This document shows positions 11,559 to 28,723 of a DNA stretch of 64,000 nt, one piece after another. The DNA is from Kiritimatiellia bacterium (GTDB lineage Bacteria > Verrucomicrobiota > Kiritimatiellia > RFP12 > JAAYLN01). Position 1 is the stretch's first letter; every line of letters begins with the position of its first letter. The notes under the pieces were generated by a model. It saw only the letters and a list, made by a program, of their open reading frames with translations. It did no database searches and was not told the origin of the DNA. Where the stretch lies: NCBI GenBank assembly GCA_017962605.1, contig JAGCUY010000070.1, positions 2,095-66,094 on the forward strand, in the 5' to 3' direction. Position numbers and translations under genes: made by a program.

Positions 11559-11689
11559 TCTTTCGCCTAATCCGCTGGCCGTCTTGCTAGATGCCATCGG
11601 ATACATTCGCTTCCAAAAGCGAACCACCGGCGCACAGCCCAAAAGGTTGTGCGCCTTGATTATATCTGACGGAATAATAGACTCACCCG

Positions 11690-12340
11690 TTGCTTGTCGA
11701 TGTTGGATTACGGTGCGGAAAAGTCTTTTGACTACGGCACTGAAATGTCGCTAGACTACGGCACGGAAATATCGCTAGACTACGGTGCGGAATAGTCTTC
11801 GGTAAGGCAAGCACACCATACTAATCACTAGCTACTAACGACTAACTACTAACGACTAACCATCCCCAGCGCTCCGCGTCAAACATCTAAACATTCAAGG
11901 CGCGAACGCGCCAAACCTCCCAGGCGCGCCAGCGCCAAACTTCGCCCGAAGGGCTCACCCTTTCACAAGACCACGGTGCGGAAAAGTCTTTTGACTACGG
12001 TTCGGGATGTCATTGGATTACGGATAGGAAATTTGGCTATACTTCGGTGCGGAAAGGTCTTTTGACTACGGTTCGGGATGTCATTGGATTACGGATAGGA
12101 AATTTGGCTAGACTTCGGTGCGGAAAGACAATTAGACCATGGAGCGTAAACATCAATAGACCATGGTTCGGAAAAAACTTTGGATCATGTTTCGGAAAAG
12201 TCGATAGACTATACAGTGCGGGAATGTCGATAGACCATGGTGCGGAAACATCGATAGACTACGGGTCGGAAAGGTCGCTAGACCACGGTGCGGAGAAGTC
12301 GATAGATTACAGTGCAGAAAGGTATTTGATAGGGGATGCA
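11690..12340. repeat. degenerate 24-bp direct tandem repeat array (about 19 units, consensus GGTGCGGAAANRTCGMTAGACTAC), with an internal near-perfect duplication of about 70 bp
   Basis: Units read directly (ggtgcggaaaagtcttttgactac / ggcactgaaatgtcgctagactac / ggcacggaaatatcgctagactac ... ggtgcggagaagtcgatagattac). The segment 11975-12040 is duplicated at 12043-12110. Lies in the convergent intergenic region between putP and the large secreted-protein gene. Confidence 0.8.
11878..11946. repeat. REP-like palindromic element (GGCGCGAACGCGCC / GGCGCGCCAGCGCC cores), copy A
   Basis: tcaaacatctaaacattcaaggcgcgaacgcgccaaacctcccaggcgcgccagcgccaaacttcgcc. Its reverse complement is nearly identical to 34018-34090. 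Confidence 0.6.
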
Positions 12341-12446
12341 CACCATGCGAGCCTTCGCAGGGGGAGTTATGGCACGGGCAACGGCGAGAGCGAGGATTGG
12401 TTGTGGCGAGAGAAAGCTTTGGCGATGGCGGCGTTGTTTCGCGCAC

Positions 12447-15400
12447 TTATTCTACTGTTGCCATCTCGCCTTTGTTCTCGCGGAGAATGGATAGGTTGCG
12501 CTTCGCCATCGCATTTCCTTTTTCAGCAGAACGATTGAGCATTTCAAGCACTGTGGCCTCATGGTATTCCCCGGGATTTGCTATCTCCGCATAGAGAAGA
12601 ACCGCCAGGTTGTTGAGCGCTTCCGCATCGTCGGCCATCGCGTTCAAGACAGTGTTGCCAATCGCCCGTGACGGCAACTCGCTGAAGAAAAACATCTGCG
12701 CGATGCCATCGCTCCCAGCGGTTTTGCGCAAGAAGAAATACTTTCGCGGCCCGAAGTCGTCGCTATGCCGCGCCAGTATCACAAAGCGGATGTCCTGCGA
12801 AATCTGCCACATGGCGATTGCTCGCTCGACCCCTTCAGGCAAATCCCCATATTGGATGGGCTTATCTTCGGAAATAACAGTCTCGTCCCAGTAGTCATAT
12901 CCGAGAACGGGGGAAAGCAATTCTTTTATTTCCTTTTCCCCGCAGCGTTGATACGCCCCGTCGAGTTTGTCGTATGCGTATTCCTCAGCCAAACAGTTCT
13001 GCGTCCAGTATGTATCCCTGACGCAAATGTAGCACTCCTCCTTATCGCCGCCTTTGTCAGCGGGAATGTGAAGCCTATAGACGCCATCGGCCAGTTCCGC
13101 CAGCAAGGCGCCGCTTTCTGCCTCATAGTCATCCATGTCAAGTTCCCAAAGGTCATTCGCCGCCGGTTTCCATGGACAGAAAACCATCCGTTTCAGCGTC
13201 TCCGGAGGAACAAGCCCCTTTTGCCTCAAAGCCACATGGGAATCCTCACGAAGCAGTTCGTTGACGTATTTACGCCAGTCGAGTGTGTCGTGGCGATAAC
13301 CCACATGGCGGTAGTAGCCGAGCATCATCTGGTCAATGAGCGGCAGCGCAAACCCGCTTTCCATGGAGAAATCTGCTCTGAGACAGAGTTCCGGCCTGTA
13401 GCGGAAGGGACGTGGGGGCTTTATAGATGGCTCGCCAACGAGGTCTGCGTCGCTTTTGTATTCGTATTTCCATGCAAGCGTTGACCGAGAGGGGTCTTCC
13501 TCAGTGAGGTCATATTGATGGCCATAGTAGCCAATCTTGGCATTGGCGAGGCCGTTTGTCAGATCTTCAGCGTCTAGCTCTTGCGTCCAAAACGCCTCCA
13601 TGCTTTGGTGGCCCTCAAGAGGTCTTCCAAGCTCATCGCGCGAGTCAATGATGAACCCCTCTCGCGTGAACTCGTTGGTTGATGCGTTGCCGTTGGACGC
13701 AGGTGTCACGCGCGTCCAGCCGATAAGTTCGCCGTCGTTGCCGTAGTGGAACGAATCAATCCACGTTCCCTTGGCGCATCGCCAAGGGCAAAACCCGCCA
13801 ATCTGCCGCTTCGTAAAGTCGCTGACAGCAAGCCGCCCCTGGGCGTCATATTCGCGCGTCTCGTTCGGATTGAAATAAACGCTGGCAATCGCCGGGACCG
13901 AGGCGCGGCCATTGCAGACGAAGAAGCATCCGATATCGACGCGGGAAGACTTGATGGTCGCGCCGCCCGGAAGCGGCGCGTCGAAAGCCCCGTGCCAGTC
14001 TATTTCGATGCGGGCATGTGCGGAGTCTTCTCCCTGCGTTGTTATTCGCACCTTGTCTGCATCCCCTTGCAGCACTTTCCACACGAACTCGCCGCCCGTG
14101 TTGTTTTCATTGAACAGGCCGTCGGGTTCGGGCAGCCTTTGGGCCTCCACCTCCATTATGGCCGTTTTCGCCGCCCAGAAAGCCTGGATTGCGAAATGAT
14201 GGGCGGAACGTGCGACATATTTGCCGGAATCGTCGCCGAAGTCGATGTTCGCCGCAGGAGACGTGTCAAACGGAAGCGACACCTTGATGAACGGCATGTA
14301 GGGCGGTAGCGCGTTCGTCATCGCGCGGGCGTCCGCCAAGGCCCTCCCGACGTCGATGTCCGCGAAGGACAGGACAGGGCGCTGGGCGACCCCATCCATG
14401 AACGCCGCCTCGTTCGTGACGCACCGCTGGGCGTGGCGGATGATGTTCAGCGCGGCAAGCGATGCCCGGTTCGCGAAGTTCGTCGGGAGCGCCACTACGA
14501 TGTCCCTGAAAAGGCCGGCGAACTTCGACGCATCGTCTGCGCCGCTGCTGACGCCGACGCAGACTGGCAGGTTCGCCATGAAGCGGTCGATGCCGTCCGC
14601 GCCATAGTCCGAACCTGCGGCGTAGAATCCGAGCATGTTCCGAAGGCCGTGTCGCCACACCTCGCGGCATGCCCCGCCCCTGTCGAGGGCGATGATGGCC
14701 GCCGTGCCCATCGGCCTGTTCAGGCGGTTGTCTTCACCCGGGCAGTCGCCTGTCGCCACGGTCGGGATGTGCTCCTCCCTGCGTGTGTCCCTGAACCTGA
14801 ATATCGTCTTGCGCTTGTCGTGGCCAGCCTTGCGGAGCGAGTCGGAAAACGAGACGGCCGTCATTCCCAGAGGCGGCTGGACGCGACTTCCCCAGTCGTA
14901 GTTGAGAAGGAGGACGGGCCGCGCGTCTTCGTCGGTATCGACAGAAACAAGATACTCGCCGCCGATGGGGCTTGTAGCCTCGCCGAACTCGTAATACACG
15001 TTGTCGTCGTCAAGTGCAAGCACGCCATCGGCAATCCGGGCGTGCTTGCGCGGCTCGTCCCACTGCTCCTTGATTTCGCCGGCAATGCTGACGAGTCTGT
15101 CGAACCGCGCGTCGCCGCGAATCCCGGCGAGGTCTTCGTCCTCCATCATGTAGTCCGCCTCGTTGTACCCGGCGGCGATGGCCTGTTCCAGGGCTTCGAT
15201 GGCCTCGTCGGCCCGCCCCTGGCGGGCGAGGGCGCAGGCAAGGTTGTAGAACCAGCGCGGCGGGGCGATTCTGAGACGAATTCCCTCGCGGGCGACCCTC
15301 TCGAAAACCTCCGCCCGCCCTCCGATGTCCTCGGAACACCAGTCCTGCGCCCTTTCCAATTCAAAGAAGTCCTCCGCATAGTCGGGCATTTCCGACATCG

Positions 15401-16133
15401 GGACGCGGACGTCCGCGCCGCGCCACTTGCGGCGCAGCGCGGCAAGCGCCTCGGACGCATCTTCGATTGCGTAAACATCGACATTGGCGGCCTCGATGGC
15501 CTCTGCGAAAAGCGCGTCCACCGCGTCGAGGATTGACTTGAAGTCGGTTGGCGGCGCCTCGCAGGGAAGGACGTTGGCGCTCTCGGCAAGCCGGGAGTAG
15601 CGTATCTTCACGAAACGGCCGCGCCATGCGGTGATGAAGGTCAGGGACAAGCACTTCGCCGGGGCGTCGTTCGCGTCAAATGTGAGCGATGTCCAGAGGA
15701 AAGGGAGCTTCGACCTTTCAAGCACTCCCTCCTCGCTTCTGCCAAGCCATTTGAAATTGTGCCTTATTTGCTCGATTTCATGGCATGCCTTTGCAAGTTC
15801 GCGCCTGACCTCGCCCCCTACGCCATCAGGCAGGATTGGATCGTCGCGCATGAAGATAAAGAGGCTCAATAGACGCCCATTACCGCCCAGGGTCGGGTCT
15901 TCACCAGAACTGTAAACGAGTGCGTAGTCGTCATCGCCAGATTCGGTGAAAGTTCTTCTATCCAGCATCGTCAGGCCGTCTATTTTCTCCGGGAATTCGA
16001 CGCGGAGAACAGGCTCCACCCAGGTGCTGCATTGCTGGATTGAGTTCGCCTCGTATTTCTGGGCCGCGCAAGCGTCTGACATTGCCATGCTTGCCGCGCA
16101 AATCAATGCTGCCGCTATTGTTTTTGTGTTCAT
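12447..16133 (-). CDS. large secreted hypothetical protein (1228 aa) with C-terminal Sel1-like repeats
   Basis: N-terminal signal peptide (MNTKTIAAALICAASMAMSDACAAQ). C-terminal AEALNNLAVLLYAEIANPGEYHEATVLEMLNRSAEKGNAMAKRNL resembles Sel1/TPR repeats. Confidence 0.5.
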   Translation of the reverse strand: MNTKTIAAALICAASMAMSDACAAQKYEANSIQQCSTWVEPVLRVEFPEKIDGLTMLDRRTFTESGDDDYALVYSSGEDPTLGGNGRLLSLFIFMRDDPILPDGVGGEVRRELAKACHEIEQIRHNFKWLGRSEEGVLERSKLPFLWTSLTFDANDAPAKCLSLTFITAWRGRFVKIRYSRLAESANVLPCEAPPTDFKSILDAVDALFAEAIEAANVDVYAIEDASEALAALRRKWRGADVRVPMSEMPDYAEDFFELERAQDWCSEDIGGRAEVFERVAREGIRLRIAPPRWFYNLACALARQGRADEAIEALEQAIAAGYNEADYMMEDEDLAGIRGDARFDRLVSIAGEIKEQWDEPRKHARIADGVLALDDDNVYYEFGEATSPIGGEYLVSVDTDEDARPVLLLNYDWGSRVQPPLGMTAVSFSDSLRKAGHDKRKTIFRFRDTRREEHIPTVATGDCPGEDNRLNRPMGTAAIIALDRGGACREVWRHGLRNMLGFYAAGSDYGADGIDRFMANLPVCVGVSSGADDASKFAGLFRDIVVALPTNFANRASLAALNIIRHAQRCVTNEAAFMDGVAQRPVLSFADIDVGRALADARAMTNALPPYMPFIKVSLPFDTSPAANIDFGDDSGKYVARSAHHFAIQAFWAAKTAIMEVEAQRLPEPDGLFNENNTGGEFVWKVLQGDADKVRITTQGEDSAHARIEIDWHGAFDAPLPGGATIKSSRVDIGCFFVCNGRASVPAIASVYFNPNETREYDAQGRLAVSDFTKRQIGGFCPWRCAKGTWIDSFHYGNDGELIGWTRVTPASNGNASTNEFTREGFIIDSRDELGRPLEGHQSMEAFWTQELDAEDLTNGLANAKIGYYGHQYDLTEEDPSRSTLAWKYEYKSDADLVGEPSIKPPRPFRYRPELCLRADFSMESGFALPLIDQMMLGYYRHVGYRHDTLDWRKYVNELLREDSHVALRQKGLVPPETLKRMVFCPWKPAANDLWELDMDDYEAESGALLAELADGVYRLHIPADKGGDKEECYICVRDTYWTQNCLAEEYAYDKLDGAYQRCGEKEIKELLSPVLGYDYWDETVISEDKPIQYGDLPEGVERAIAMWQISQDIRFVILARHSDDFGPRKYFFLRKTAGSDGIAQMFFFSELPSRAIGNTVLNAMADDAEALNNLAVLLYAEIANPGEYHEATVLEMLNRSAEKGNAMAKRNLSILRENKGEMATVE

Positions 16134-16161
16134 GTTGCGTATCCTTTGAAAGTGTAGGCTA

Positions 16162-18228
16162 TCAAAGCAGAATACTCTGTTTTAAAGCATTCCAGTCCTT
16201 TTCGTTCAGCGTATTCACACCAGAATTTGTCACTCGGCCCTTTGCATCAAAGTATAGATCGAGTTCACCTCCTCCGATTGGTGACTGAAAACTCAACCTT
16301 ATATGGTAATCAGAGAATGCTTTTGCAGAAACGAGTTGGAGAGGCTTGCCCTTCAGAGATTGCAAGATGCGAGCGACTATTGTTTCGTGTTGCGGACGGA
16401 CACTAATTTCTGGCTCGGCAACATCTGATTGTTCGGCTTCCTCCCCAAAGACTTCTCCTGTCTTTTTACCAACCAAAGAAGACAAGCGCCTTCGTGCTGC
16501 ATCATCAAGGCCATCGACATGGTTTTCAATGTGGGTAATCATGGCATTCTTGCGGTATATGACATCAACATATCCCGTTTTGTCTTTGCCTTGAACATGT
16601 ATCCGATACCGAGAGGAAAGCTCTTCGATTTGTCCCAATGTCAATCCAATAGATCGAATAACTTCATCGATTGCCGATGACGTCCTTTGAACACAAGTAT
16701 CCACTTCTACAGCCTTATCATAAGACTTATTAGACGCGAAAACATTAGACAAAGCGTCAATATGCGGAGAATTGGCAACGAATAAGTGTTCCTTGGCGCG
16801 TGTTGTAACAGTGTATGCCCAGCGGAAGAAATAACTACTCATGAGATTTAATCCACAATTGTAGTCCGCCCATACATAATTCCATTCACCACCCTGTGAC
16901 TTGTGGCCTGTAACGGCATAGCCGAATTTTACAATTGGTGCGCGAAGCCAAGGCAACTCTGCCATTTTTTCTTTAACCAATTTGTCCCAAAACAGCTTTT
17001 TGCTTCGGTCTTTTCGGAAATCGGGATATTTCTTTCGCAAAATTTCTTCTGCAAAATGTTTTACCCCATTGTAGAGTCCCATTTGGGCAAAACAATCATG
17101 TTCATCCCATTCGGAAAGAATTATGGGTGTAACATTTATCCAGATGTTATCGACCTGACCACGTTCGGGTTCATAAGTCCAACGCAGAGACATCCTCTTA
17201 AACGTGTATGTGAAGGTGAAAGTCTTTTCACTTTCTTTTGGGCGATAATACCCTTGCAAAGAAAAAGTTTCCCCGAAAGTGTTCACAACAGTGAGAAAGT
17301 CGCCATTGAAGAACTGCACCTTCTCTCCAGATGGAAGAAGAATGCGTGTGTTTCTGATGGATAGAAGCCTTTCTCCGTATTCCGGCAATTTGCCAAAATG
17401 CCCCAAAAAACCTCGAATTACAGCATTGTATTCTTGTACTTTGGCATTAGTATGGGCAATGGCAATCTTTTCGTCTATTGAATCCTTCCAATCGGGAACG
17501 ACAGACAATGTCTCTTCAGAGACCATTGAGACATCCTCGTGCGAGGTAAATGAGAAACGATTGAAGTCTTTTGCTTCAAGCGCTGAGCGCAACCTTGTCG
17601 CCTCAGCAAGGATGCCACTCCCTTTGCTTTGACGGAATACCTCGGTAAGTTCTATTACAGTCGGTTTAAATGAGGTTAATTCCTCTATCTTTTCCGCATC
17701 CAGGGCAGGAGGAGTCTCGCATTGCTCCATGACAGGAGGAAGCTGGAAAGAGTCTCCGACGAAAAAAAGAATGTTTGACGTATTTTGAGTCTTAATTCCA
17801 GAATACTGAATCAAATCCCCCAAAAGAGAACCACTGCCGAATTGAAACAACTCACGATCATTATCATGCTTGGAAAGACCGACCATCGAGGCTTCGTCTA
17901 TGATAAAAGCCGTGTTTTCAACATCCTTGTCATCCTTTAGTGGGAAAATCCATTTCAGCGCATCGTCTTGCTCGTCCCGGATTGGTTCATTCACAATGTT
18001 GAAGATTCCTGAATGGATAGTTGAAGTATCAAATCCTGTTCTCTTGTGTAGAACCATCGCAGCCCGACCCGTAGGAGCCATCAGCATCGGGAAGAGTCCG
18101 CGTTCTTGAAGAACTGGCACAAGCGAACGGATAAGGGTTGTTTTACCAGTACCAGCGGCACCCCGGATGATGAAACAGCGGGTACCAGCATCAAGCGCAT
18201 GCAAAATAGTGTCAAGAGGATTTCTCAT
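16162..18228 (-). CDS. SF1B RecD/Pif1-like DNA helicase (AAA_30 + UvrD_C_2-type) with about 200-aa C-terminal extension
   Basis: Motifs I GAAGTGKTT, Ia MAPTGRAA, II IIDEASMV, III VGDSFQLPPV, IV VFRQS, V YAVTGHKSQGGEWNYVW, VI YTVTTRAKEHL. Start codon lies 2 nt after the RT stop. Low-GC gene. Confidence 0.75.
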   Translation of the reverse strand: MRNPLDTILHALDAGTRCFIIRGAAGTGKTTLIRSLVPVLQERGLFPMLMAPTGRAAMVLHKRTGFDTSTIHSGIFNIVNEPIRDEQDDALKWIFPLKDDKDVENTAFIIDEASMVGLSKHDNDRELFQFGSGSLLGDLIQYSGIKTQNTSNILFFVGDSFQLPPVMEQCETPPALDAEKIEELTSFKPTVIELTEVFRQSKGSGILAEATRLRSALEAKDFNRFSFTSHEDVSMVSEETLSVVPDWKDSIDEKIAIAHTNAKVQEYNAVIRGFLGHFGKLPEYGERLLSIRNTRILLPSGEKVQFFNGDFLTVVNTFGETFSLQGYYRPKESEKTFTFTYTFKRMSLRWTYEPERGQVDNIWINVTPIILSEWDEHDCFAQMGLYNGVKHFAEEILRKKYPDFRKDRSKKLFWDKLVKEKMAELPWLRAPIVKFGYAVTGHKSQGGEWNYVWADYNCGLNLMSSYFFRWAYTVTTRAKEHLFVANSPHIDALSNVFASNKSYDKAVEVDTCVQRTSSAIDEVIRSIGLTLGQIEELSSRYRIHVQGKDKTGYVDVIYRKNAMITHIENHVDGLDDAARRRLSSLVGKKTGEVFGEEAEQSDVAEPEISVRPQHETIVARILQSLKGKPLQLVSAKAFSDYHIRLSFQSPIGGGELDLYFDAKGRVTNSGVNTLNEKDWNALKQSILL

Positions 18229-18230
18229 GG

Positions 18231-20069
18231 CTATAGGTCTCCATAAATGCCGAAATTGCTACCAGATTTTTCTTTGCAATAGTAGTCTTGAATCTCTACC
18301 CTTGTTAATCCCTTGAAAGAGCCATAGTAGCTAAATGGCGCTCCATAGTACCCTCGTTTAATTGTCAAGGTCGTGCTGTCGTTTACGGAAAGGTCTTTGT
18401 TGCCATTATCGCAGTCTATCGCCGGAGTTGCGGGATGCTGTTTCCGCCACTCTCTCTTCATGGCCTTTTTCGCCAGTTTCAGAACAGAGTTGCGTGTTCT
18501 ATCGAGGTTTTTAAGTTGAGACACTACTGAAGGACAAGACGAAATGTGGGGCAGAAATACCGCCAGCCAACTTCTGGCAAATCTTGCATTAGCCGGACGA
18601 TCAATCCTTCCCACGCCAATGGCTGTTAGACGCAATTGGAAAACCTTGAAGAGGTCATACCAGGTAAATCCATTCCTAAACTGGGATTGCGCGTCTTTGA
18701 GCATACGAGTAAGTCGCGTCTTTTCCATGTACATTTTATCCTGATGCTTTTTTATAGTTTCCTTTTTTATGCGGACTGCTCCATCATATCGTATCTGATG
18801 GCCCAGAAAACTAATCCATGGCGTACCAGGGCGTCCTAATCCAGTCTCCTTCCAGGCAATGGGGCCTTTTGATTTTTCGGTGAAGTACGCCGATGAATAC
18901 CTCGCACTTTTAGCTATGGGGTGTGTCGGTAGTTTTAATCGTTTCACAGCATCCAAATACCTGTCAAGAGCCTCCTTGCACTTCTTTTTTTCGGGATGTA
19001 CGATAATTATGTCATCGCAAAATCTTGCATAAAACAAGTTCTCATCTGCATCAGCCATAACAGCGCGGTCGGCTTCATCCATGACGATGTTAGCCAAAAG
19101 TGGTGAAAGCGCACCGCCTTGCGGAATCCCTATTTCATGTGGATTCACATCTTCGTCCCCATAAACTGATTGCAGGACACTAATCGGCACACGATCTACA
19201 CACTCGCGCTTAGCAATGATTTCCGGGTCTTCGTATTCGTCAAGATTGCGTGGAAATGCGTAAACATTCAAATATGCTTCAAGCACTTTCCGAGCGCGGT
19301 TGTCAACACCTTGCGGGGCACGGGCGGAAAAAATGTCGAAAGCTCGCCTAATTATATCGTGGTTGATTACGTCAAAGAACTTTTGAATATCGCAATCTGC
19401 CACATAGAGAGTTTGGTTCGTAAAGCGTTTTCTATATTCGATAAGATTGTTTATGGCCGTATGGATGGAATACTTTTTCCCGTTGCGGCGAAAAGCATAG
19501 CAACAGTTCAGCAAATGTGAATCAAAAACATTCCGAAGATATGCGGCAGTTTTTGAAAGAATTACCCGATCTTTTGAATCGGTAAAACACGACAGGCATC
19601 GGTATGAAGATTTCTTGTTCTCTTCGTCCATCGTTTTTACACGTCCTGTATTCTTCCGAATCAACATCAACTCAGGCCTTCTAAATGCGAATTCGCCGAT
19701 GGTTATAGTTTTTTGTATGTCCATGGCAAATGCAACCAGATTTCTGCCCCATTGGGAGTCTTTGAGCTTTCCGGCTTTCAGCATTCCAGAAATAACGCGA
19801 ATGATTGACAATGTGGCAACATCATTTTGCGATAAACCTTTTCGGGCTTCTTTGCCGCCCCGTCGCCACAGACGGCGCGGCGGAAGCATCTTAGTAATGG
19901 ATTCTTCACTTATCTTACTCTTGGGTTCAAGTTCCTTTCCGGCGTCATCGTGCAAAACCAGCCGGTCCCAATACATATGGTATCTATGGCGTGAAGAGGC
20001 AATACGAGTCCGCAAGGCGCACAGCACCTTTACGATGTCATCAAAACTGAAATACTGCTCAAAATCCAT
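18231..20069 (-). CDS. reverse transcriptase (612 aa) with long N- and C-terminal extensions; not intron/retron/DGR-like in context
   Basis: RT motifs 1-2 (CCYAFRRNGKK ... YVADCDIQKFFDVINHD), 4 (IGIPQGGALSPLLANIVMDEAD), 5 (YARFCDDIIIV = YxDD box), 7 (ISFLGHQIRYDG). About 190 aa precede motif 1 and about 200 aa follow the thumb. Low-GC. Confidence 0.8.
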   Translation of the reverse strand: MDFEQYFSFDDIVKVLCALRTRIASSRHRYHMYWDRLVLHDDAGKELEPKSKISEESITKMLPPRRLWRRGGKEARKGLSQNDVATLSIIRVISGMLKAGKLKDSQWGRNLVAFAMDIQKTITIGEFAFRRPELMLIRKNTGRVKTMDEENKKSSYRCLSCFTDSKDRVILSKTAAYLRNVFDSHLLNCCYAFRRNGKKYSIHTAINNLIEYRKRFTNQTLYVADCDIQKFFDVINHDIIRRAFDIFSARAPQGVDNRARKVLEAYLNVYAFPRNLDEYEDPEIIAKRECVDRVPISVLQSVYGDEDVNPHEIGIPQGGALSPLLANIVMDEADRAVMADADENLFYARFCDDIIIVHPEKKKCKEALDRYLDAVKRLKLPTHPIAKSARYSSAYFTEKSKGPIAWKETGLGRPGTPWISFLGHQIRYDGAVRIKKETIKKHQDKMYMEKTRLTRMLKDAQSQFRNGFTWYDLFKVFQLRLTAIGVGRIDRPANARFARSWLAVFLPHISSCPSVVSQLKNLDRTRNSVLKLAKKAMKREWRKQHPATPAIDCDNGNKDLSVNDSTTLTIKRGYYGAPFSYYGSFKGLTRVEIQDYYCKEKSGSNFGIYGDL

Positions 20070-20222
20070 AGGAGAAAAAAAGGAGGCGGCGTCGCGGAAT
20101 TCTACCTAGTTGGCCGCTTTGCGCCCTTTAGGGCGCAGGAATTTGACGCGGGGAACCAATTGGCCTGCAAGCCCCGCCAGAATCACGGTCGTTAGCCGTG
20201 CGCGACGCGCGCCTCCATAAAA
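20070..20222 (-). ncRNA. candidate structured non-coding RNA / regulatory leader immediately upstream of the RT gene
   Basis: 153-nt spacer that is GC-rich inside an AT-rich island. Contains a perfect hairpin TGCGCCC-TTTA-GGGCGCA (about 20119-20136) and further GC palindromes (GCGCGACGCGCGC). No ORF. Confidence 0.25.
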
Positions 20223-22925
20223 TCATTTCACAACCTCCAATGTGACAGCCTTCCACCCAACGCGATCCTTGAGCTTGTCGTAGGATTTCACCGCTACGCC
20301 TCCGATTTCCGTGCCATTTGTTAAGTCCTGAATAAGGCTTTGTGGCACGAAAATATCTTTTGAGTCGCCTGTTCTGTTGCGAACGAAACCATAGTTACGG
20401 CCTTCGGGCCTGTTGAATGTCCCGGAATAAAACATGCCGAAAGAAGGGAACCCTTCGTACTTGACATTTATTATTTCAAGAATATATGATTTGCCGCTTT
20501 TTGCGCTTCTTTCAAGAGCCAATTCGCATACCGTTCCGCTAGGCATGTTAGCCAGACATGGAAGCTTTGCCCAGTCACCTGTGCATGTTTCGCCATTGTT
20601 GCCGATTGTAAACTCTGAACGCCCACGACGTTTGTCTTGATAAGATAGAATGGCAATCTGCTTGGGGTAAATGTCCCATGGGACTCCCTCCTCTCTTTTC
20701 TCAACCTTGAGGACTCGTAGCCGTTCGCCAACCACTTCCGTCCAGATTTTCACGGGCATTCCTGGCGTAGCCATGCCAAGTACGGGAAATCGTCTTGTTT
20801 CAACGCGAACTTCGGTTGAATTTCCAAAATCTGCAAAAATCTTGGCAATTTTCTCATTGCGTTCCTTGTCAACATAGCATGTCATGAGAACGGCATTAAT
20901 GAAAGGCTGGCCGGCAAACGCGATTTCATCTGCCTTGGCCGCAAACTCATGGTACACGTCTTCATTACTATTTGTTGGAGTTGGATCGGTGGTAAACCGC
21001 ATCTTCTCGCCATCTGGAATTGCCTTTATTGTAACCAACTGTTTTTTTAGCAATTCGTCTTTTTTTTGCCGGAGTTGGTAGAGACTCCATTTTTTTGCGG
21101 TTCGGATCTCTTTTACAATCCTCAATTCACATAGAGCCTCAGGTATTTTTCCCATTTCAATGAAGGCGTCAGCAAGCATTTCATGGACGCCTACAAGATA
21201 CGAACTGTCTTTTGCCGGACAAAGCGCTGCGCGGCAAAGGCAGGCAAAGAATTTCTCCCTGTCATCGTGAAATGTTTCGGCAAGAAGTTGCCAAGTCCAA
21301 AACTGAGCCGATTTTTTGCGAGTTATTTTCGCTATATACTCTCTGGCCTTGACGGATTCGCCGCTTTCAACAAGCAGTTTTCCATAATAGAATGGAAACC
21401 ATTCCTGCGAAGGGTATCTTTCCATGGCCATCCTGATGAAATCCAATATCCATTTGTGGCCTACCACGAACGCAAGGTTTTCACTACGGCCTTTTTGTTT
21501 TGCACACTTATAAAGCAATCCTACTACAGTTTCAACAAGAGAAGGAAATGATTTGTTCGGATTGTCTTTCGGGATGAACGGCGCGTAATCTTCTTCGGCG
21601 AAATTGGAGACATCCCAATTTTTGACAAAATGGAGGAATTGAATGGCCAATTGTTCTTGGATATTCTCACCCGCAGCCTTTACTATCTTTGCATAGATTC
21701 GCAGATATTGCGAATAGGCAACCGAAGGCTTCGGAACGGCCGAGCAGCAATTCACCAAATTGAAACCTTCGACGACGCAATTTGTGACGGCATCTTCCTG
21801 CCCGTTCTTTTCTCGTCCCTCTGGGAAAACGTCATTGAGAATTTTCTTCAATGACGCAGGAGTCAAATCTGCCGCATTTGGATTCCAGCCTTTCTTCAAG
21901 GCTTCGTCTATTGTTCGATAAAGCGCCCAGATTGCACTGGTCTGGGCTTTCTCGCTTTCTGGGTTTAGCGGAATGGCGGCACAGTATTCCCTGAAGGCAC
22001 GGGGATAATCACCAAGCTTGTCACAGACAGAAGCCAATGCCATGTGTGCAAGGAAACTTGTTGGCTGTTCACTAATAAGCGATTCTGCCTTTGACAATGC
22101 TTCTGCCAGCGACTCCGGGTTTGCTGCCAATGCTTTTATTTCACCAGTCCCACTCAAAAACTGGTCAGCTTTTTTTAAGTCTATTGGTCTTGTCGCTTTG
22201 ACTTTGCTTTCTCCTGCGGCTTCCTCATTAAGAGAGAGGTTACGCATTTCGTTGGCAAAGAACTCGACTAGCTTTCGATTCTTAAGGTTTTCCATCGATT
22301 GTTTTAGGCAATCATGGAGCGTCCAAAACATATCTAGTTGGCATGAGGTATCATCACATTTATCAAGCAGTTTTGCCCTGCATTCCTCGAATTGTGCCGA
22401 AAGGTGTTCCTCGCTTGAAAGAGCCTCTGAGGCATAATGTTGAATCAGCTTTTTCAAAATCATGTCATATTCACTATCTCCAAGAGAAAGCCCTTGAAGG
22501 ATAGAGACGAATCTTTCTCGCGTTTTCTGAAGAGTTTCTTTTTGTGTTTTTCCAAGAACATGTAGAGACTTAAGGGCGGCGATTGCGTTGCATCCAGCCC
22601 AGCCAACTGCGCTCGCATTTTTAGCGGTGTCGAGATTGTAGAGGTCGCAGGCCATCAGGAACGCTATAATGCGACATGATTGCAATTCAATATTGTCAGA
22701 GCCACAAGTAGTAATTGCAGCTTTTGCCTCCCGTCTTATGGCCGTGCAAACCTTGAATGCATCCTGACGGTTCGCTGCTGCATATGTTATCCATGACTTT
22801 TGCACTTCATCAGCATAGATCCCATTCAAGGCTGCAATGACATCTACGTCTTTGCGCGTCGCAAGGCCGGAAGCTAGCAACTGCTGCAAATCATCTAGTT
22901 TCCATGTTGTCGTGAAGGTTGCCAT
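20223..22925 (-). CDS. 900-aa alpha-helical (TPR-like) protein with C-terminal cold-shock-domain-like OB fold
   Basis: Mostly helical, repeat-like N-terminal 650 aa. C-terminus NYGFVRNRTGDSKDIFVPQSLIQDLTNGTEIGGVAVKSYDKLKDRVGWKAV parallels the CspA RNP1/RNP2 motifs (KGFGFI ... DVFVHFSAI). No nucleotide-binding motifs. Low-GC. Confidence 0.45.
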   Translation of the reverse strand: MATFTTTWKLDDLQQLLASGLATRKDVDVIAALNGIYADEVQKSWITYAAANRQDAFKVCTAIRREAKAAITTCGSDNIELQSCRIIAFLMACDLYNLDTAKNASAVGWAGCNAIAALKSLHVLGKTQKETLQKTRERFVSILQGLSLGDSEYDMILKKLIQHYASEALSSEEHLSAQFEECRAKLLDKCDDTSCQLDMFWTLHDCLKQSMENLKNRKLVEFFANEMRNLSLNEEAAGESKVKATRPIDLKKADQFLSGTGEIKALAANPESLAEALSKAESLISEQPTSFLAHMALASVCDKLGDYPRAFREYCAAIPLNPESEKAQTSAIWALYRTIDEALKKGWNPNAADLTPASLKKILNDVFPEGREKNGQEDAVTNCVVEGFNLVNCCSAVPKPSVAYSQYLRIYAKIVKAAGENIQEQLAIQFLHFVKNWDVSNFAEEDYAPFIPKDNPNKSFPSLVETVVGLLYKCAKQKGRSENLAFVVGHKWILDFIRMAMERYPSQEWFPFYYGKLLVESGESVKAREYIAKITRKKSAQFWTWQLLAETFHDDREKFFACLCRAALCPAKDSSYLVGVHEMLADAFIEMGKIPEALCELRIVKEIRTAKKWSLYQLRQKKDELLKKQLVTIKAIPDGEKMRFTTDPTPTNSNEDVYHEFAAKADEIAFAGQPFINAVLMTCYVDKERNEKIAKIFADFGNSTEVRVETRRFPVLGMATPGMPVKIWTEVVGERLRVLKVEKREEGVPWDIYPKQIAILSYQDKRRGRSEFTIGNNGETCTGDWAKLPCLANMPSGTVCELALERSAKSGKSYILEIINVKYEGFPSFGMFYSGTFNRPEGRNYGFVRNRTGDSKDIFVPQSLIQDLTNGTEIGGVAVKSYDKLKDRVGWKAVTLEVVK

Positions 22926-22961
22926 GTCAATCTCCGGTTATTGTCATTCAATTTGCAATTG

Positions 22962-24170
22962 CTAACCCTCAAAAACTAATCGTATCTTCGGACTTGGGCG
23001 TATACATTTTTCATACGGACGTGGGATGTCAATATCGCTCCCCTCAAAAAAACGTTTCACGTGGTCAACTATCTGACAACGTCTAAACTTCGCATCATCT
23101 CGTTCCAATGAACCATCACCTATGTCCCCGCTATAAGGGTGAAAGGTATTTAAATGGCCATTTTCATCACAGATATCAAGGCCTTCGGGAATCCTCATTG
23201 AGTAAATGCCGCCAACAATTGCACGGTTGTGAAACGTATGCGTCCTCCTAGAGTTATAATCCTTTTTGAGTAGCAAAACACGTATCAACAAACCCATTGC
23301 ATTGTTGTGCCTTATTTTATTGGTTCTTCCCATTTCTTCAATCAGATTAATCACTTCTAAGGCTGAAAACTTTTCATATTCCACAGGGTATTTCGAGATT
23401 ATCGTCAGTTCCGTAATATCAGAATTTGACATAAATGGTTGCAACAACGCTTTTGAGGAATGCTTCCATCGGTTTTGATTGTCAATGTGTTCGGAAGTAT
23501 TATCATCATTAGGTTTCGCAATTGCGCTCCAGTACCGGTCGGCAAGCACTACTTGTCCTTCTGCTGCGGCACAAAAAGCATTCATATAGTCATAAAAAGA
23601 GTTTTTGGAACTATCATCATATGTTTGTTCTCCTATCCATTTTTTACGCAATATTTCTGTATCACTTTCTTCATAGTTATCTATTGATTCACAGACGAAA
23701 GATTGTCGTAAGTTGTTTATTGATAACCCTTCACTAAACTTGTCGGTTATTATAACGAAGCCCTTGATTTCTCGTGGGGTGGCAATACGCCGAGTATGTT
23801 TGGTCCATGCTTGGATACATTCTTTCAAATAGTCATTATCATCGCCCGTGGACTCGTTAATCGCTACTATATGTTTTCGATCTTCATAAAGGCTATCATA
23901 ATTTTTGAGAACGTTGCAAAGATTGCCAAAAAAGCCGCCTTCTTCTAGTTCGGCATATTCCTCCGCATATTGTTCTGCAATGGTCGTAATTAAAGCAAGA
24001 GGTTTGCGCGCTTTACTAAACTCGTCAAGAATGAGAATACCATTGGCTTCAATAGCATTGCGAAGATTGACAAGTCTGCTTTGAAGTTGTACGGCATACA
24101 CTATGTTATTCGCCGCCTTATCGATGCAACGGCGAATATGCATCCAATCTATGAGATACTGAACAATCAC
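22962..24170 (-). CDS. hypothetical 402-aa protein, partner of the adjacent ABC-type ATPase
   Basis: GTGA start/stop overlap with the upstream ATPase gene. Very AT-rich. No confident domain. C-terminal C-x-x-N-G-H...H...C...D-H region is a possible but unconvincing nuclease-like motif. Confidence 0.4.
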   Translation of the reverse strand: MIVQYLIDWMHIRRCIDKAANNIVYAVQLQSRLVNLRNAIEANGILILDEFSKARKPLALITTIAEQYAEEYAELEEGGFFGNLCNVLKNYDSLYEDRKHIVAINESTGDDNDYLKECIQAWTKHTRRIATPREIKGFVIITDKFSEGLSINNLRQSFVCESIDNYEESDTEILRKKWIGEQTYDDSSKNSFYDYMNAFCAAAEGQVVLADRYWSAIAKPNDDNTSEHIDNQNRWKHSSKALLQPFMSNSDITELTIISKYPVEYEKFSALEVINLIEEMGRTNKIRHNNAMGLLIRVLLLKKDYNSRRTHTFHNRAIVGGIYSMRIPEGLDICDENGHLNTFHPYSGDIGDGSLERDDAKFRRCQIVDHVKRFFEGSDIDIPRPYEKCIRPSPKIRLVFEG

Positions 24171-25228
24171 CTCACGCCCTCAATTCCGAAGAATTCATCG
24201 ACAACTCTTGTTCGAGCAGTAAAGAATCCACCCGGCCATCTCGTTCGATAGTTTCCATAGGAGTCGGTCTTTATCTCATCCACTATACTACCCTCTTCGG
24301 TTTTTGTAACATATAGCACGGAAAGGTCATCTGGCGTAATCGTTCCCATCCTAAGGAAGTTTTTTAGTTTCAAAGCCATTAGTTCGCTATGGCTCTCAAC
24401 AATAAGCTGTCTGTCTCGATTCTCATTAGCGGTCTTGAAAATGAAATTCATGAGACTGGATATTTGCCGCTCGTTGACATGGGATTCCGGCTCTTCAAGT
24501 GCAAAAAGATGTTTTTGCCCCGCCCTCCATTTGCAAAGGCTCAGTCCTGTCTCATACAATCCGTCTATCCCTGCTCCTGTATTGTCTCGCACGACAGTTA
24601 TACCAAAAGTTTTGTCTTTAAGTCTGCTAAAGTCAAGGGCCTCATAAGGGACATTTAGTTCCGAAAAAAACTCATTAACAAATTTGATTGCATCCGTCCC
24701 AAGAAGGAGTGCTTCGTCCAGACTCGTTTTTTTCGTTTCGTCGATTCTGGTCCGAATTGGACGAGCGGCTTCTTGGTGAATCATTTCTGGAACGCCATTG
24801 ACATACGGATCTTTCAAACTCTGATGAATACGTTTCCTCTCTTCAACATCGGTCGGCCTTTCATAAAAGCTATGGACAGCCCCTGAATATGGAGTTTCAT
24901 AGCCGATGTACTTTAGAGAATGTCCGTTTTCACTTTCTCGCCCTTCTTGCCTTGCAGAATACTCATATTTTGGGGAGTGTCCCAAAGAATCTGCGGATGT
25001 TGTTATCCTCAATTTGATTTCCAGATTTGTGTCGCCTGAAAAAACATACTCTTTAAAATTAGCACGAATGGCGGCTACTTCGTCGTTGCATATCATGCGC
25101 AACAATTGAAGGAAAGTGCTTTTCCCGGCGCTATTGTCACCAAAGATAAAGTTGATTCGCCGCAGAGAAAAATCTACTCCTGGGTCACCATAGCACTTGA
25201 AGTTTTTCAGTTGAATTCGCCTAATCAT
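24167..25228 (-). CDS. ABC-type (AAA_15/AAA_21, SMC-head-like) ATPase, defence-associated type
   Basis: MIRRIQLKNFKCYG N-terminus typical of the family. Walker A GDNSAGKST. Walker B/D-loop LFALEEPESHV ... LIVESHS. Likely start at 25228 (MIRR) rather than the track start at 25318. Confidence 0.65.
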   Translation of the reverse strand: MIRRIQLKNFKCYGDPGVDFSLRRINFIFGDNSAGKSTFLQLLRMICNDEVAAIRANFKEYVFSGDTNLEIKLRITTSADSLGHSPKYEYSARQEGRESENGHSLKYIGYETPYSGAVHSFYERPTDVEERKRIHQSLKDPYVNGVPEMIHQEAARPIRTRIDETKKTSLDEALLLGTDAIKFVNEFFSELNVPYEALDFSRLKDKTFGITVVRDNTGAGIDGLYETGLSLCKWRAGQKHLFALEEPESHVNERQISSLMNFIFKTANENRDRQLIVESHSELMALKLKNFLRMGTITPDDLSVLYVTKTEEGSIVDEIKTDSYGNYRTRWPGGFFTARTRVVDEFFGIEGVR

Positions 25229-25262
25229 GAGCAAACCTCTCCTCCAAAAACAAACGATAAGA

Positions 25263-26417
25263 TTATACCAAAAAATGGCTTTCTTTGATAAGGTCTGGAC
25301 ATCCGCAGACATCCGCAACTATTTCCCTGTTCCTCCACTTGATTCGTTGCAGGGGGAATGTGACAGGGGCGTTGCGCTTGGGGACAAGTGTTTCCACGGC
25401 TGTGAAGCCGGCGGCGGCAAGGCTTTTGCGGAGGTTCGACATGGTCTTGGTCAGGTCTTCCGCGAACTTCTCGTTGGAGAAGAGCGAACCCTCCTGGAAA
25501 GTGGCTATCCAGTCGCATTTGCCGGATGCATGGTTTTCCGTGCCATGCAGGGCGAGTAGTCGCCTATGGAGGTCACGGATAGGGCACCCGCCAGCAATCA
25601 AAAGGAGCGTCGCAAAGCATGGGCGGCTCATGGGGACTGTCGCCCCGTCGAGTGTCACCCAGCCATTCCATGCGTCGATTTCAATCTCAGGATAAACAAC
25701 GGCTGGCGGTGCGACTTCCTGAACCCGCGAAACAAGTGTTCCGTAATTTGGCGGCAGCGACTTGAACTTCTCCTGATACCACCCACGCATGCGCACATAC
25801 GGCACCTCGAACAGCTCGCTTTTCAGCGAAGCACCCGCATGACTCTTTCCCGTAAGCAGGGACTTGTAGCGCGTTCCCTTTTTGGGGAAGAAGAAGGGCG
25901 GCTCACTTCCACCCTCCAATGCTGGCGGCAGCAACACATGGTAAACCTTGTCGCAATCGCGGCCGAGAAGCGTCATGCAGGAAAACATGAGGGCGCTCAT
26001 TGTCTTTCGTCCGCCTGCAATCGATACGTGGAGTTCCGTCCCGCAATCCTCTGTGAATTGGCGTAGTTGCGAGAGCATGAAGTTTGCTGCGCGGAGATTG
26101 TCGTCGCCCGTCCTGAGATCGTCGATTTCGTTGCCATGCGCATCAGGGATGGCGCGAATGGATGCGCTCCCGAAAACGAGACGCCCTTCGACATCAAGCC
26201 CGCTCCGCTTCATGCAAGCCAACATGTCGTTCCAAACGCCCCCTTCGAGAAGCGCTTCGCAAAGACATCTCTTCCCGCTCTTCGTCGTGATGGCGACGAC
26301 CTCGTCAGGCACAACCGGAACATCACAATGGGCCAGCGCCCATGCGGTCTCCGTGAGAATCGACGGCGTCGTGCCAACAACGGCCACCAAAACTGCCTTC
26401 TTGTCCTTTTCCATCAC
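25263..26417 (-). CDS. CARF-domain protein (CRISPR-associated NE0113-like Rossmann sensor) with uncharacterised C-terminal domain
   Basis: Strand-1 motif VLVAVVGTTPSILTETAWAL and strand-4 motif LHVSIAGGRKTMSA match the two CARF signatures. 384 aa. GC-rich, host-like composition. Directly upstream of the AT-rich island on the same strand. Confidence 0.45.
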   Translation of the reverse strand: MMEKDKKAVLVAVVGTTPSILTETAWALAHCDVPVVPDEVVAITTKSGKRCLCEALLEGGVWNDMLACMKRSGLDVEGRLVFGSASIRAIPDAHGNEIDDLRTGDDNLRAANFMLSQLRQFTEDCGTELHVSIAGGRKTMSALMFSCMTLLGRDCDKVYHVLLPPALEGGSEPPFFFPKKGTRYKSLLTGKSHAGASLKSELFEVPYVRMRGWYQEKFKSLPPNYGTLVSRVQEVAPPAVVYPEIEIDAWNGWVTLDGATVPMSRPCFATLLLIAGGCPIRDLHRRLLALHGTENHASGKCDWIATFQEGSLFSNEKFAEDLTKTMSNLRKSLAAAGFTAVETLVPKRNAPVTFPLQRIKWRNREIVADVCGCPDLIKESHFLV

Positions 26418-27676
26418 TATTCCCCCTCTAGCAGAAAGTCGTAGGCGTTGACTTGGTGGACGCCATTGTTCGAGGCTGGCAGATCCATGTCGAGCGTAAT
26501 CAGCGTCTTGGGGTAGTGGTCGCGTATCGCCAAAAGAGGCGCGTATTCGCGCATCCGCGTCGTTTCGTCCCGCACTGTCTCCGCAACCTGGTAATAGCGG
26601 ATGTCGTCGCCATCCCGCGTGACAAAATCGACTTCTCGGCCGTCATGTTGCCCAACCATGACATTTCCCGAACGGCGCAGCAACTCAAGATAGACGATAT
26701 TCTCCAGCATGCGCCCCGAATCGCCGGAACGGTTGCCCAGAAGACGGTAACGCAATCCCATGTCAACGGCATAGTATTTGCACCCGCTTGTGAGTACATC
26801 CCGTCCGCGAATGTCATAGCGCGGGGCCTTTAGGAAAAGGAAGGCGTCGCACAAGGCATCAACATAGCCCTCGACCGTGTTGCCGTTCGTCCTGGCACCG
26901 GCGGAGGAAAGCGAGGTGGCGATGTTCCTGAGGCTCGTCAGATTGCCGATATTGTCCAAGAGGAAACGAGCTATGCGGTCGACCAGCCCCGCGTCCGTCA
27001 TCTTCCGCCGTCGCAGAACATCCTTCACCAGAACGGTATTGTAGATGCCGTCAAGATACTCGCCTACAAGCCTCGCATCGCCCCGCAGTGACGGAACATA
27101 CGGAAAAGAACCGAAGCGAAGGTAATCTAGGTAATGACGGGTGTAGTCCCCTGTCGCGCCGATGGCGTTGCAGTATTCGCGGAATGACAGCGGCTGCATC
27201 TTGATTTCAACATAGCGGCCGGAGAGAAATGTCGCGAGGTCGCCTGAAAGCATGTTGGCGTTCGAACCCGTGACATAGACGTCGATGTTCTTGCGCGAAT
27301 GGAGTCCGTCAACCAGCTTCTCGAACTCCGGCAAACGCTGAACCTCGTCAAGGAAGACATATGTCTTTCCATGAGTGGCAATCTGCTGCTTGATGAGATT
27401 CCAAGCATCGCGCCATGACGAAAACTCCGGCGTATCGGGATCCTCGAAGTTGAGGGCGACAATCCGGCTGTCAGGTACGCCGGCGCGCTTCAAACTGTCA
27501 CGAAAGATTTCAAGGATCGTGGACTTTCCGCAACGGCGGACGCCTGTCACGACTTTGACAAGATCATGGTCTCGCCAATGTTCCAACTGGCGCACGTAAT
27601 ACGGCCTGCCGAAGATAGTCTTTTCGCTGTTGTCCATAAGCAACTTCCCGATATAAAAACACTTCAATTGAATCAC
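26417..27676 (-). CDS. AAA+ ATPase, AAA_14 + DUF4143 family
   Basis: Walker A GVRRCGKST, Walker B VFLDEVQ, and a C-terminal region typical of DUF4143 ATP-binding proteins. 1-nt overlap with the CARF gene. Confidence 0.65.
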   Translation of the reverse strand: MIQLKCFYIGKLLMDNSEKTIFGRPYYVRQLEHWRDHDLVKVVTGVRRCGKSTILEIFRDSLKRAGVPDSRIVALNFEDPDTPEFSSWRDAWNLIKQQIATHGKTYVFLDEVQRLPEFEKLVDGLHSRKNIDVYVTGSNANMLSGDLATFLSGRYVEIKMQPLSFREYCNAIGATGDYTRHYLDYLRFGSFPYVPSLRGDARLVGEYLDGIYNTVLVKDVLRRRKMTDAGLVDRIARFLLDNIGNLTSLRNIATSLSSAGARTNGNTVEGYVDALCDAFLFLKAPRYDIRGRDVLTSGCKYYAVDMGLRYRLLGNRSGDSGRMLENIVYLELLRRSGNVMVGQHDGREVDFVTRDGDDIRYYQVAETVRDETTRMREYAPLLAIRDHYPKTLITLDMDLPASNNGVHQVNAYDFLLEGE

Positions 27677-27734
27677 ATTTCATCGAGAAAGTCAAGAACT
27701 GCTAAAATATTTGAGCATTTTTAAATAAAACATG

Positions 27735-27762
27735 GGAAATGCTAATCTCGATTAGCATTTCA
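27735..27762 (-). terminator. perfect 11-bp inverted repeat (AAATGCTAATC-N3-GATTAGCATTT) followed by a T-rich tract on the minus strand
   Basis: Read directly. Sits at the 3' end of the ferredoxin-like gene and upstream of the DUF4143 ATPase gene. Could be a terminator or an operator. Confidence 0.3.
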
Positions 27763-28404: not shown

Positions 28405-28559
28405 GAGGCGTTACGACTTCCCAATGACCGCCCTTGTCCGGACCGACGCGGCGGATAACGCCCGGTTGCTTCGCTGACCCGCGCCAATAGCGGGGGAGAA
28501 GTGAATTTGCCTCTCCAAATTCATGCCCGCGAAACGCATTTATTCTAGCACAATGCGCA

Positions 28560-28720
28560 TTAGGAAGCAAATGGAAGTTCTTGAAGTTGAAAAGTTGAGA
28601 GGTTGAAAGGTTGAAAAGTTGAAAAGTTAGGCGCTGACGCACGACAAATAATCTCACACAGAGGCACAAAGACACAGAGGAGAAGTTGAGAGGTTGAGAG
28701 GTGGGGCGAAAGGGCCATGC
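28560..28720. repeat. tandem octamer repeats (GTTGARAR)n with an embedded REP-like fragment (AGGCGCTGACGCACG)
   Basis: gaagttgaaaagttgagaggttgaaaggttgaaaagttgaaaagttaggcgctgacgc...gagaagttgagaggttgagaggtgggg. Confidence 0.75.
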
Positions 28721-28723
28721 CAC

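Follow-up and report, generated by a model that had tools for sequence, protein, structure and literature searches.

The 64,000-nt stretch of a Kiritimatiellia contig that we analysed (JAGCUY010000070.1; hereafter the window) encodes on its minus strand a reverse transcriptase (RT) of 612 residues (18231..20069). We found that this protein belongs, by its sequence, to UG39, a catalogued group of the Class 2 UG/Abi RTs, and that it is directly preceded by a conserved, covarying and structured non-coding RNA (ncRNA; 20070..20222, minus strand). That the RT and the RNA form a unit is close to certain. Both are embedded, in a low-GC island, among genes of the TOTE/PDC-M16 type. Our preferred reading, which we consider probable though by no means secure, is that this UG39 RT works with its upstream RNA within a TOTE/PDC-M16 conflict system.

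The reverse transcriptase and its extensions

The RT open reading frame (ORF) runs from an ATG to a TAG codon, and Pfam RVT_1 matched residues 152-389 of its product (E 1.6e-19). Motifs A (ADCDIQKFFD), B' (GIPQGGALSPLLAN) and C (YARFCDD) were recognised, together with motif E (FLGHQ), which was read from the translation and the alignments. When 46 and 115 homologues were aligned, D227 and D233 of motif A, Q317-G318 of motif B', and C351, D352 and D353 of motif C were found to be invariant in both alignments. The catalytic tetrapeptide of motif C (F350-C351-D352-D353) is encoded at 19011..19022 on the minus strand. To judge from these residues the enzyme is catalytically intact, as had been proposed in the original prediction, which was made from the DNA letters alone.

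That prediction had also described the RT as atypical and unclassified, a view that we had to abandon. The PADLOC model RT_UG39 aligned with residues 3-585 of the protein over positions 2-537 of a 541-position profile (E 3.2e-131, 436.9 bits), while the runner-up among the PADLOC RT models reached 91.6 bits, i.e., more than 340 bits less. The RT is thus no orphan and its sequence places it, extensions included, in UG39. Besides the RT domain, the protein contained no Pfam domain, and neither an alpha-Rep nor another known fusion, which is a trait of Class 2. A profile comparison with the UG groups had been proposed as a check, and its outcome comes near to a refutation by a known family, yet UG39 has been named and never characterised; apart from the paper that defined it (Mestre et al. 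2022, PMC9226505), no relevant paper in the literature that we searched dealt with it. The likeness to UG/DRT-class enzymes (DRT, defence-associated RT) that had been suspected from the presence of an N-terminal extension was borne out, both by this full-length match and by the structural comparison described below.

A search of 5.8 billion proteins yielded 322 homologues, most of which spanned 85-100% of the query with 31-82% identity. The N- and C-terminal extensions were conserved end to end in hundreds of these proteins, with conserved positions such as L62-P-P-R-R-x-W68, R76, W107, P132, K139, K399-S-K401, W406, G487, W501, Q518 and D523. The family is not typically phage-borne, since a scan of 2.9 million viral contigs disclosed a single distant relative. 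The plasmid search retrieved one locus (L150), on plasmid pSpe of Thiospirochaeta perfilievii (NZ_CP035808.1, 21273-23032), which is of the type linked to VirE(BT4734); no other full-length relative turned up on the plasmid of a cultured organism. The RT of this locus is annotated as two ORFs, and the gene may therefore be disrupted. Even so, the plasmid might offer an experimental entry to canonical UG39.

Structure prediction followed by a structure search, also proposed at the outset, gave a confident AlphaFold2 model (115-sequence alignment; mean predicted local distance difference test score (pLDDT) 90.3, predicted template modelling score 0.88), in which only residues 551-562 and 604-612 were of low confidence. 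The two extensions were confidently modelled, and the claim that they exist was therefore upheld, with the correction that the N-terminal one comprises some 130-150 residues rather than about 190. The best matches found by Foldseek in the PDB were the DRT9 structures 9vma, 9nlv and 9ioa (E 3e-15 to 4e-13, about 560 aligned columns, TM scores 0.47/0.57), followed by a group II RT, G2L4 and DRT2. We read the model as an ordinary bacterial RT fold that would be nearest to the Class 2 UG/group II lineage, with fingers and palm at about residues 130-400 and a helical thumb at about 430-545, the limits of the thumb being set from the predicted helices and the Foldseek output giving no aligned-residue positions. 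The model also suggests, without establishing it, that the N-terminal 130 or so residues and the tail are equivalent to those of DRT9 at the level of the fold. A sequence-profile search of the PDB with the RT family profile returned RT cores only, and the C-terminal 214 residues, when compared alone with PDB sequences, gave only spurious matches to LptE.

The C-terminal tail contains a motif, G576-A-P-F-S580-Y581-Y582-G583 (18321..18344, minus strand), that is a candidate site for protein priming by analogy with DRT9. In its general form, GxP[FY]SYxG, S580 was invariant and G576, P578 and Y581 were conserved in at least 90% of the sequences. The motif was ordered in the AlphaFold2 model (pLDDT 80-91) and came after the low-confidence linker (551-562), which is of variable length. 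Another tyrosine, Y609, located three residues from the C-terminus, was invariant within the nearer clade. Priming at S580-Y581-Y582 is an idea that we would put forward tentatively, as it could well prove wrong.

A conserved, covarying RNA upstream of the reverse transcriptase

The 153-nt spacer that separates the RT gene from the preceding gene, which encodes a TPR-S1/CSD protein, had been singled out in the original prediction as worth treating as an RNA, and this proved to be well founded. Its minimum free energy was -69.4 kcal/mol (z -3.3). The core (20082-20216) consists of a 15-bp closing stem P1 (GGAGGCGCGCGUCGCG / CGCGACGCCGCCUCC) surrounding three hairpins, P2 (CACGG...CCGUG), P3 (GCGGGG[GGCC...GGUU]CCCCGC) and P4 (UGCGCCC-UAAA-GGGCGCA), and a single strand of about 23 nt, J4/1 (about 20097-20119, minus strand). 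Just 3' of P1 and 5 nt ahead of the RT start codon, a tract of seven U (20075..20081, minus strand), identified by reading the sequence, could represent a terminator tail or a template; a T-rich tail was present in nearly all aligned relatives.

We searched for this RNA in 148 related loci, genomic as well as metagenomic (about 1.6 Mb), to which five loci obtained by exact protein look-up were added for the comparison of gene contexts. The spacer measured 151-160 nt in 11 of 14 distinct relatives linked to TOTE genes, and compensatory changes were obvious on alignment. A covariance model (R1), built on the consensus fold of nine TOTE-linked loci, scored 146 bits on the RNA of the window. Throughout the 148 loci its matches always lay directly upstream of an RT and in the sense orientation; what else it returned were weaker reverse-strand echoes of the same sites and one match elsewhere in the window (E 0.83). 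With R1 and nhmmer taken together, 34 of the 148 loci were positive for the RNA whatever their neighbouring genes, including loci in which no TOTE genes, but a DUF1848 gene and a helicase (900 residues) or a DprA-like gene, stand next to the RT.

In the 30 strongest R1 matches, standard pairs occupied 94.9% of the cells, compared with 41-56% when the 3' partners were slid by 1-3 columns. Compensatory changes on both sides were observed at 25 of the 32 pairs, and the cells with a double change numbered 128, versus 33 +/- 5 in shuffles. Since the alignment was fitted to R1, it is biased towards pairing, an effect that touches the slid controls and the pair-type counts less. The many G-U pairs indicated that the RNA has the same orientation as the RT gene. 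Several unpaired nucleotides (A31, U42, A45, U53, A57, U78, A80 and C126) were conserved as well, which points to a specific protein-binding scaffold.

A scan of positions 11000-29000 with Rfam 15 (E up to 1) produced only chance-level matches to mir-242 and Ysr224, both on the plus strand, and a scan of the spacer for consensus promoters and terminators gave nothing informative, no terminator being called. We observed short tandem duplications in J4/1 of the window (UAGGUAG) and of its near relatives (UAGGUAGG in L082, UAAGUAAA in L088 and AUUC..AUUC in L004). They recall the short-repeat templates of telomerase or DRT10, a resemblance between short sequences that could easily be due to chance.

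The RNA of the clade represented in the window was undetected by R1 and nhmmer in the loci where the RT is linked to a VirE gene. Even so, these loci contained about 180 conserved nucleotides upstream of the RT, with an analogous closing stem (GGGGUUCYG / CAGGAACCCC) around several hairpins, followed by a U-rich tail. In an unrefined MAFFT alignment of this RNA, 76% of the cells could pair, versus 41-51% in slid controls, and compensatory changes were found at 26 of 50 pairs, versus 16.6 expected. The median fold z-score of the 175 nt preceding the RT start was -3.4 in TOTE-linked, -3.8 in VirE-linked and -4.2 in DUF1848-linked loci, and -1.9 in those with no recognised partner, while control segments within the RT gene gave medians of -0.2 to -0.5; these z-scores are rough, each segment having been shuffled (mononucleotides) 14 times. 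The presence of an RNA throughout the family is thus based on the separate VirE-linked alignment and on the fold z-scores.

No report of an ncRNA for UG39 was found in the literature that we searched. In the work of Mestre et al., ncRNAs were predicted for UG2, UG3+UG8, UG28 and UG27 and for no other group (PMC9226505), and the UG39 RNA is therefore new within that literature.

Gene neighbourhood in the window and in related loci

Downstream of the RT, a gene on the same strand (16162..18228) encodes an SF1B (RecD2/PIF1-like) helicase of 688 residues. It matched AAA_30, AAA_19, PIF1 and UvrD_C_2 in Pfam and, over residues 5-669, PDC-M16A in PADLOC (E 9.2e-116), and it showed a weak C-terminal match to TBP-TOTE. 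The latter domain (PF22721) was detected with E <= 1e-5 in the counterpart helicase of a related locus (L083, 690 residues). On the other side of the ncRNA, the gene at 20223..22925 (minus strand) encodes a 900-residue protein with TPR, DUF7017 and S1/CSD (OB-fold) regions, which is a TOTE component. Its matches to DUF7017 (3.5e-27, 95.5 bits), S1CSD-TOTE-2 (5e-13, 49.3 bits against a cutoff of 27) and PDC-M16B (4.6e-65) were clear and those to TPR_14, TPR_19 and TPR_16 were weak. This TOTE/PDC-M16 context, in which PDC-M16A and PDC-M16B matches flank the RT, had been missed in the original prediction.

Further upstream, the gene at 22962..24170 (minus strand) encodes a 402-residue protein, here called X, for which no family match of its own was found in Pfam, PADLOC or NCBIfam. 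A profile search of the PDB with this protein was empty and a homologue search gave two matches. Its positional homologues in related loci could be aligned, with invariant FHxR and GLD motifs, and two of nine members matched Pfam MIT_C (PLD-like) weakly (best E 2e-4). Protein X evolves fast and is always paired with the gene upstream of it (24167..25318, minus strand), encoding an ABC-type ATPase (AAA_15/AAA_21/DUF3696) that resembles NsnB, AriA and GajA. We tentatively take X to be a phosphodiesterase-type effector of the MIT_C/PLD-like kind.

A CARF protein of the Cas_NE0113/Csm6 type is encoded next, at 25263..26417 on the minus strand (Pfam 4.2e-28; TIGR02584 146.6 bits against a cutoff of 80.65). 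The corresponding gene is located before the ATPase in L081 and L082 and after the RT in L083, and because of this recurrence it may belong to the island module. The repeat scan of 11000-29000 revealed no CRISPR array. An AAA_14/DUF4143 ATPase gene (26417-27676) is read in transcription order with the cluster. The GC content is 0.42-0.47 in an island extending from about 16000 to 25500 and about 0.62 on either side, and the island was horizontally acquired. The window contained no tRNA gene. Degenerate direct repeats of 24 nt (11709-12346; consensus about GGTGCGGAAAAGTCGATAGACYAC, higher-order periods of 48, 71 and 98) were observed in a dense array just 3' of a minus-strand gene of 1228 codons, where the GC content starts falling.

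Among the related loci, 25 had a TPR-S1/CSD gene as the immediate upstream neighbour of the RT; they span RT identities of 30-82% and several phyla. In 19 of these 25 TOTE-linked loci, an ABC-ATPase homologue was encoded at a constant offset from the RT (-4.1 to -4.7 kb). The divergent protein of 320-400 residues encoded between the ATPase and TPR genes was detected by similarity in only 8 of the 25, and the helicase was within the flanks of 16 of the 25. It was adjacent to the RT on the downstream side, as in the window, in L081, L082 and L088, and further downstream in L005; it was upstream and divergent in L083, L084, L089, L090, L094, L098 and L118, and upstream on the same strand in L009, L055, L092 and L093. 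The tight coupling of RT and helicase that had first attracted attention thus concerns a real gap of exactly 2 nt (...CTA TAG cc ATG AGA...), but one particular to the locus in the window and its nearest relatives (L081, L082 and L088). Since the helicase has no fixed position among the relatives, we regard this junction as a local arrangement; the constant neighbours of the RT are the ncRNA and the TPR-S1/CSD gene. The conserved core consists of the RNA and the RT, and the cassette of the lineage to which the window belongs consists of the ATPase, X, TPR-S1/CSD protein, RNA and RT. In L082 (9914-12841), the helicase gene is followed by genes for a Sel1-repeat protein with a DarT domain and for a NADAR (DarG-like) protein, a defence/toxin module that is absent from the window.

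In a neighbour-joining tree of 131 RTs, the VirE-linked enzymes formed one clade, and the TOTE-linked enzymes were in another clade with deep branches, interspersed with RTs linked to DUF1848 and to DprA. Gene clustering placed a VirE(BT4734-like_N)-PriCT_2 gene immediately before the RT in 35 of 80 genome loci, and such a gene was the neighbour in more than 40 loci overall. In L008, L011 and L086, the RT was followed or preceded by a DUF1848 protein and a helicase of about 900 residues, DUF1848 being a partner of UG25, not of UG39, according to Mestre et al. (PMC9226505). In L006 and L140, the RT-RNA unit stood beside a DprA-like gene, and L007 (5685-9650) contained two tandem UG39-like RT genes.

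Possible mechanism, alternatives and known systems

From these data and the analogy with DRT9, DRT2 and DRT10, we infer a mechanism in which the RT would bind the upstream RNA of about 150 nt as a scaffold and copy a short part of it into DNA, J4/1 and the U-rich tail being the candidate templates. Synthesis may be primed on a hydroxyl of the RT's own tail (S580, Y581 or Y582). The TPR-S1/CSD OB-fold protein and the TBP-like SF1 helicase would act on the DNA or RNA-DNA product by binding, sensing or unwinding it, unless they gate its synthesis instead, and the ABC-ATPase with the PLD-like protein X would be the output of a cluster that serves as a whole in anti-phage defence. A role in defence is likely, and so, to a slightly lesser degree, is a functional coupling of the RT to the TOTE genes. 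An elaborate version of this scheme is a composite immunity in which the DNA written by the RT is an internal signal: a self-priming, DRT9-like RT-ncRNA particle would make short-repeat or homopolymeric DNA on infection, and the TOTE proteins would read or process this DNA or hybrid and then switch on the ABC-ATPase/PLD-like effector. We judge this version unlikely as it stands. If it were true, it would join DRT and TOTE, so far separate families, in one composite system, and would bring with it a new ncRNA family and a new type of DRT.

Several observations weigh against a joint action of the RT, its RNA and the TOTE proteins. The TBP-TOTE match of the helicase in the window scored 16.2 bits, under the Pfam cutoff of 27, and the helicase, besides being variable in position, was not found in the flanks of, e.g., L002 and L085. 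The RT-RNA unit also occurs with unrelated neighbours (DUF1848 and helicase, DprA-like, VirE-PriCT_2) or with no recognisable partner. No conserved homopolymer or other obvious template was seen in the RNA core, unlike the U4 loop of DRT9. Furthermore, the prediction of a defence function for UG39 was rated inconclusive by Mestre et al. (PMC9226505).

The diversity of the partners and the shifting place of the helicase would fit a two-component, DRT-like system in which the RT and its RNA are autonomous and the TOTE, ATPase and helicase genes are mere neighbours in the island, acting independently. DRT2 and DRT9 indeed need only an RT and an ncRNA (PMC9226505). We nevertheless consider such autonomy rather unlikely, for about 20 loci with RT identities of 30-82% retained the order ATPase, X, TPR-S1/CSD, ncRNA, RT at nearly constant distances, across Kiritimatiellia, Lentisphaerae, Verrucomicrobia and one metagenome-assembled genome (MAG) of Chromatiales. 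Moreover, the RNA takes up all of the sequence that separates the TPR and RT genes, which therefore look co-transcribed, and PDC-M16, which is otherwise a candidate system of two genes, A and B, has the RT here between B and A. A different view of the spacer is that it is a cis-acting leader or terminator, in which P1 and the U-tract end upstream transcription or attenuate the RT, while the RT uses another template or none. Untemplated synthesis is carried out by AbiK and DRT4, which are Class 1 enzymes. The stem is long and rich in G+C and, with U7 following shortly before the start codon, looks like a terminator. The lack of an obvious conserved template tract in the core also favours this view, and the 3' stem-loop and U-rich region of DRT9 are thought to act in termination (PMC12483538). 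Yet three internal hairpins with compensatory changes and conserved unpaired nucleotides exceed what a terminator needs, the element accompanies the RT rather than the gene before it, and no terminator was called at the spacer by the simple scan. In all characterised Class 2 relatives, the adjacent ncRNA is both scaffold and template (PMC12483538; PMC9226505). A purely cis-acting spacer is thus improbable, and the roles of terminator and of scaffold or template are not mutually exclusive.

The possibility that the enzyme is the RT of a group II intron, a retron or a diversity-generating retroelement (DGR), with RNA features that we missed, is suggested by the resemblance of its core to group II RTs and by the name that NCBI gives to an identical protein on record, from a Kiritimatiellae MAG ('group II intron reverse transcriptase domain-containing protein'). 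This name is misleading, since the group II equivalog TIGR04416 gave 100.4 bits against a cutoff of 300. The NCBIfam models of group II RT/maturase, Drt2, Drt3a and retron RTs all matched the core only and far under their cutoffs, those of retrons with at most 42 bits against cutoffs of at least 235, and the PADLOC models of retron RTs were weak too, in keeping with the margin by which RT_UG39 exceeded every other PADLOC RT model. Within 11000-29000, neither an intron, nor an msr/msd retron RNA, nor another Rfam family was found (E up to 1), nor any pair of repeats of the template/variable (TR/VR) kind. With the helicase gene beginning 2 nt past the RT stop codon, intron domains V and VI could not be accommodated. 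Such an origin is therefore highly improbable, and the initial exclusion of group II introns, retrons and DGRs holds on all three counts.

We thus retain the view that the RT acts with its RNA in a TOTE/PDC-M16 setting, and the interest of the locus lies in what this would add to the known systems. To our knowledge, every defence-associated RT studied so far has turned out to write DNA in an unexpected way. The product is an assembled gene for DRT2, poly-dA for DRT9 and protein-templated repeats for DRT3, and DRT10 copies a template as telomerase does. For UG39, hitherto uncharacterised, the present analysis supplies the missing RNA component, with coordinates and a covariance-supported structure, as well as a candidate priming motif and a multigene context (TOTE, ATPase and PLD-like) that hints at the sensing of cDNA. 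TOTE/PDC-M16, so far a computational candidate only, would gain a concrete nucleic-acid ligand that can be tested.

UG39 was defined by Mestre et al. as a Class 2 UG/Abi group, split from UG28 (now DRT9) and associated with a VirE + PriCT-2 gene (cluster 64; PMC9226505). The RT of the window shares a full-length profile match with this family, which is common to the Bacteroidota RTs found after a VirE(BT4734-like_N)+PriCT_2 gene, but its clade is a different one, associated with TOTE genes, and tblastn found no homologue of the published VirE/PriCT-2 (PrimPol-like) partner in the whole window. In DRT9, the upstream ncRNA of about 150 nt is scaffold and template, and the enzyme, a hexamer, starts a protein-primed synthesis of poly-dA on tyrosines in its C-terminal tail (PMC12483538; PMC12489045). 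The locus resembles DRT9 in that its RT is immediately preceded by a structured RNA of about 150 nt, which ends in a stem and a U-rich tract, and in the conserved tyrosines of the RT tail. It differs in that the PADLOC Drt9 profile covers only residues 153-446 (E 5.2e-22), that the RT is about 110 residues longer, and that it is part of a multigene TOTE cluster rather than of a two-component system. No Rfam or other recognisable likeness of its RNA to that of DRT9 was seen, and no conserved internal U-tract such as the universally conserved U4 loop of DRT9 was found, the sole U-rich stretch being the tail 3' of P1.

In DRT2 (UG2) and DRT10 (UG17), an ncRNA template is copied repeatedly into repetitive cDNA, and Class 2 DRTs generally make ncRNA-templated products (10.64898/2026.05.04.722794). 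The RT studied here is distinguished from DRT2 by its score with the NCBIfam Drt2 model (85.7 bits against a cutoff of 390), and from both DRT2 and DRT10 by a candidate single-stranded template of about 20-28 nt that is variable in sequence and by the absence of a SLATT partner at the locus. By analogy, it would be most like DRT9 and DRT2 in the way it works. TOTE stands for the 'TPR, OB, TBP, Effector' conflict systems of Aravind, Iyer & Burroughs 2022, as cited in PMC12458937. The locus shares with TOTE/PDC-M16 the TPR-DUF7017-S1/CSD protein (PDC-M16B) and the SF1 helicase (PDC-M16A), whose C-terminal TBP-like match is below threshold in the window, and these two flank the RT; it differs by the insertion of an RT and an ncRNA between the B and A genes and by the constant attachment of genes for an ABC-ATPase and a possibly PLD-like protein. 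In the literature that we searched, outside which the original description of TOTE lies, we found no account of the RNA, of the candidate priming motif or of an RT set among TOTE genes. Combining features of DRT9 with those of TOTE/PDC-M16, the locus makes a good candidate for a novel immune system based on RNA-templated DNA synthesis.

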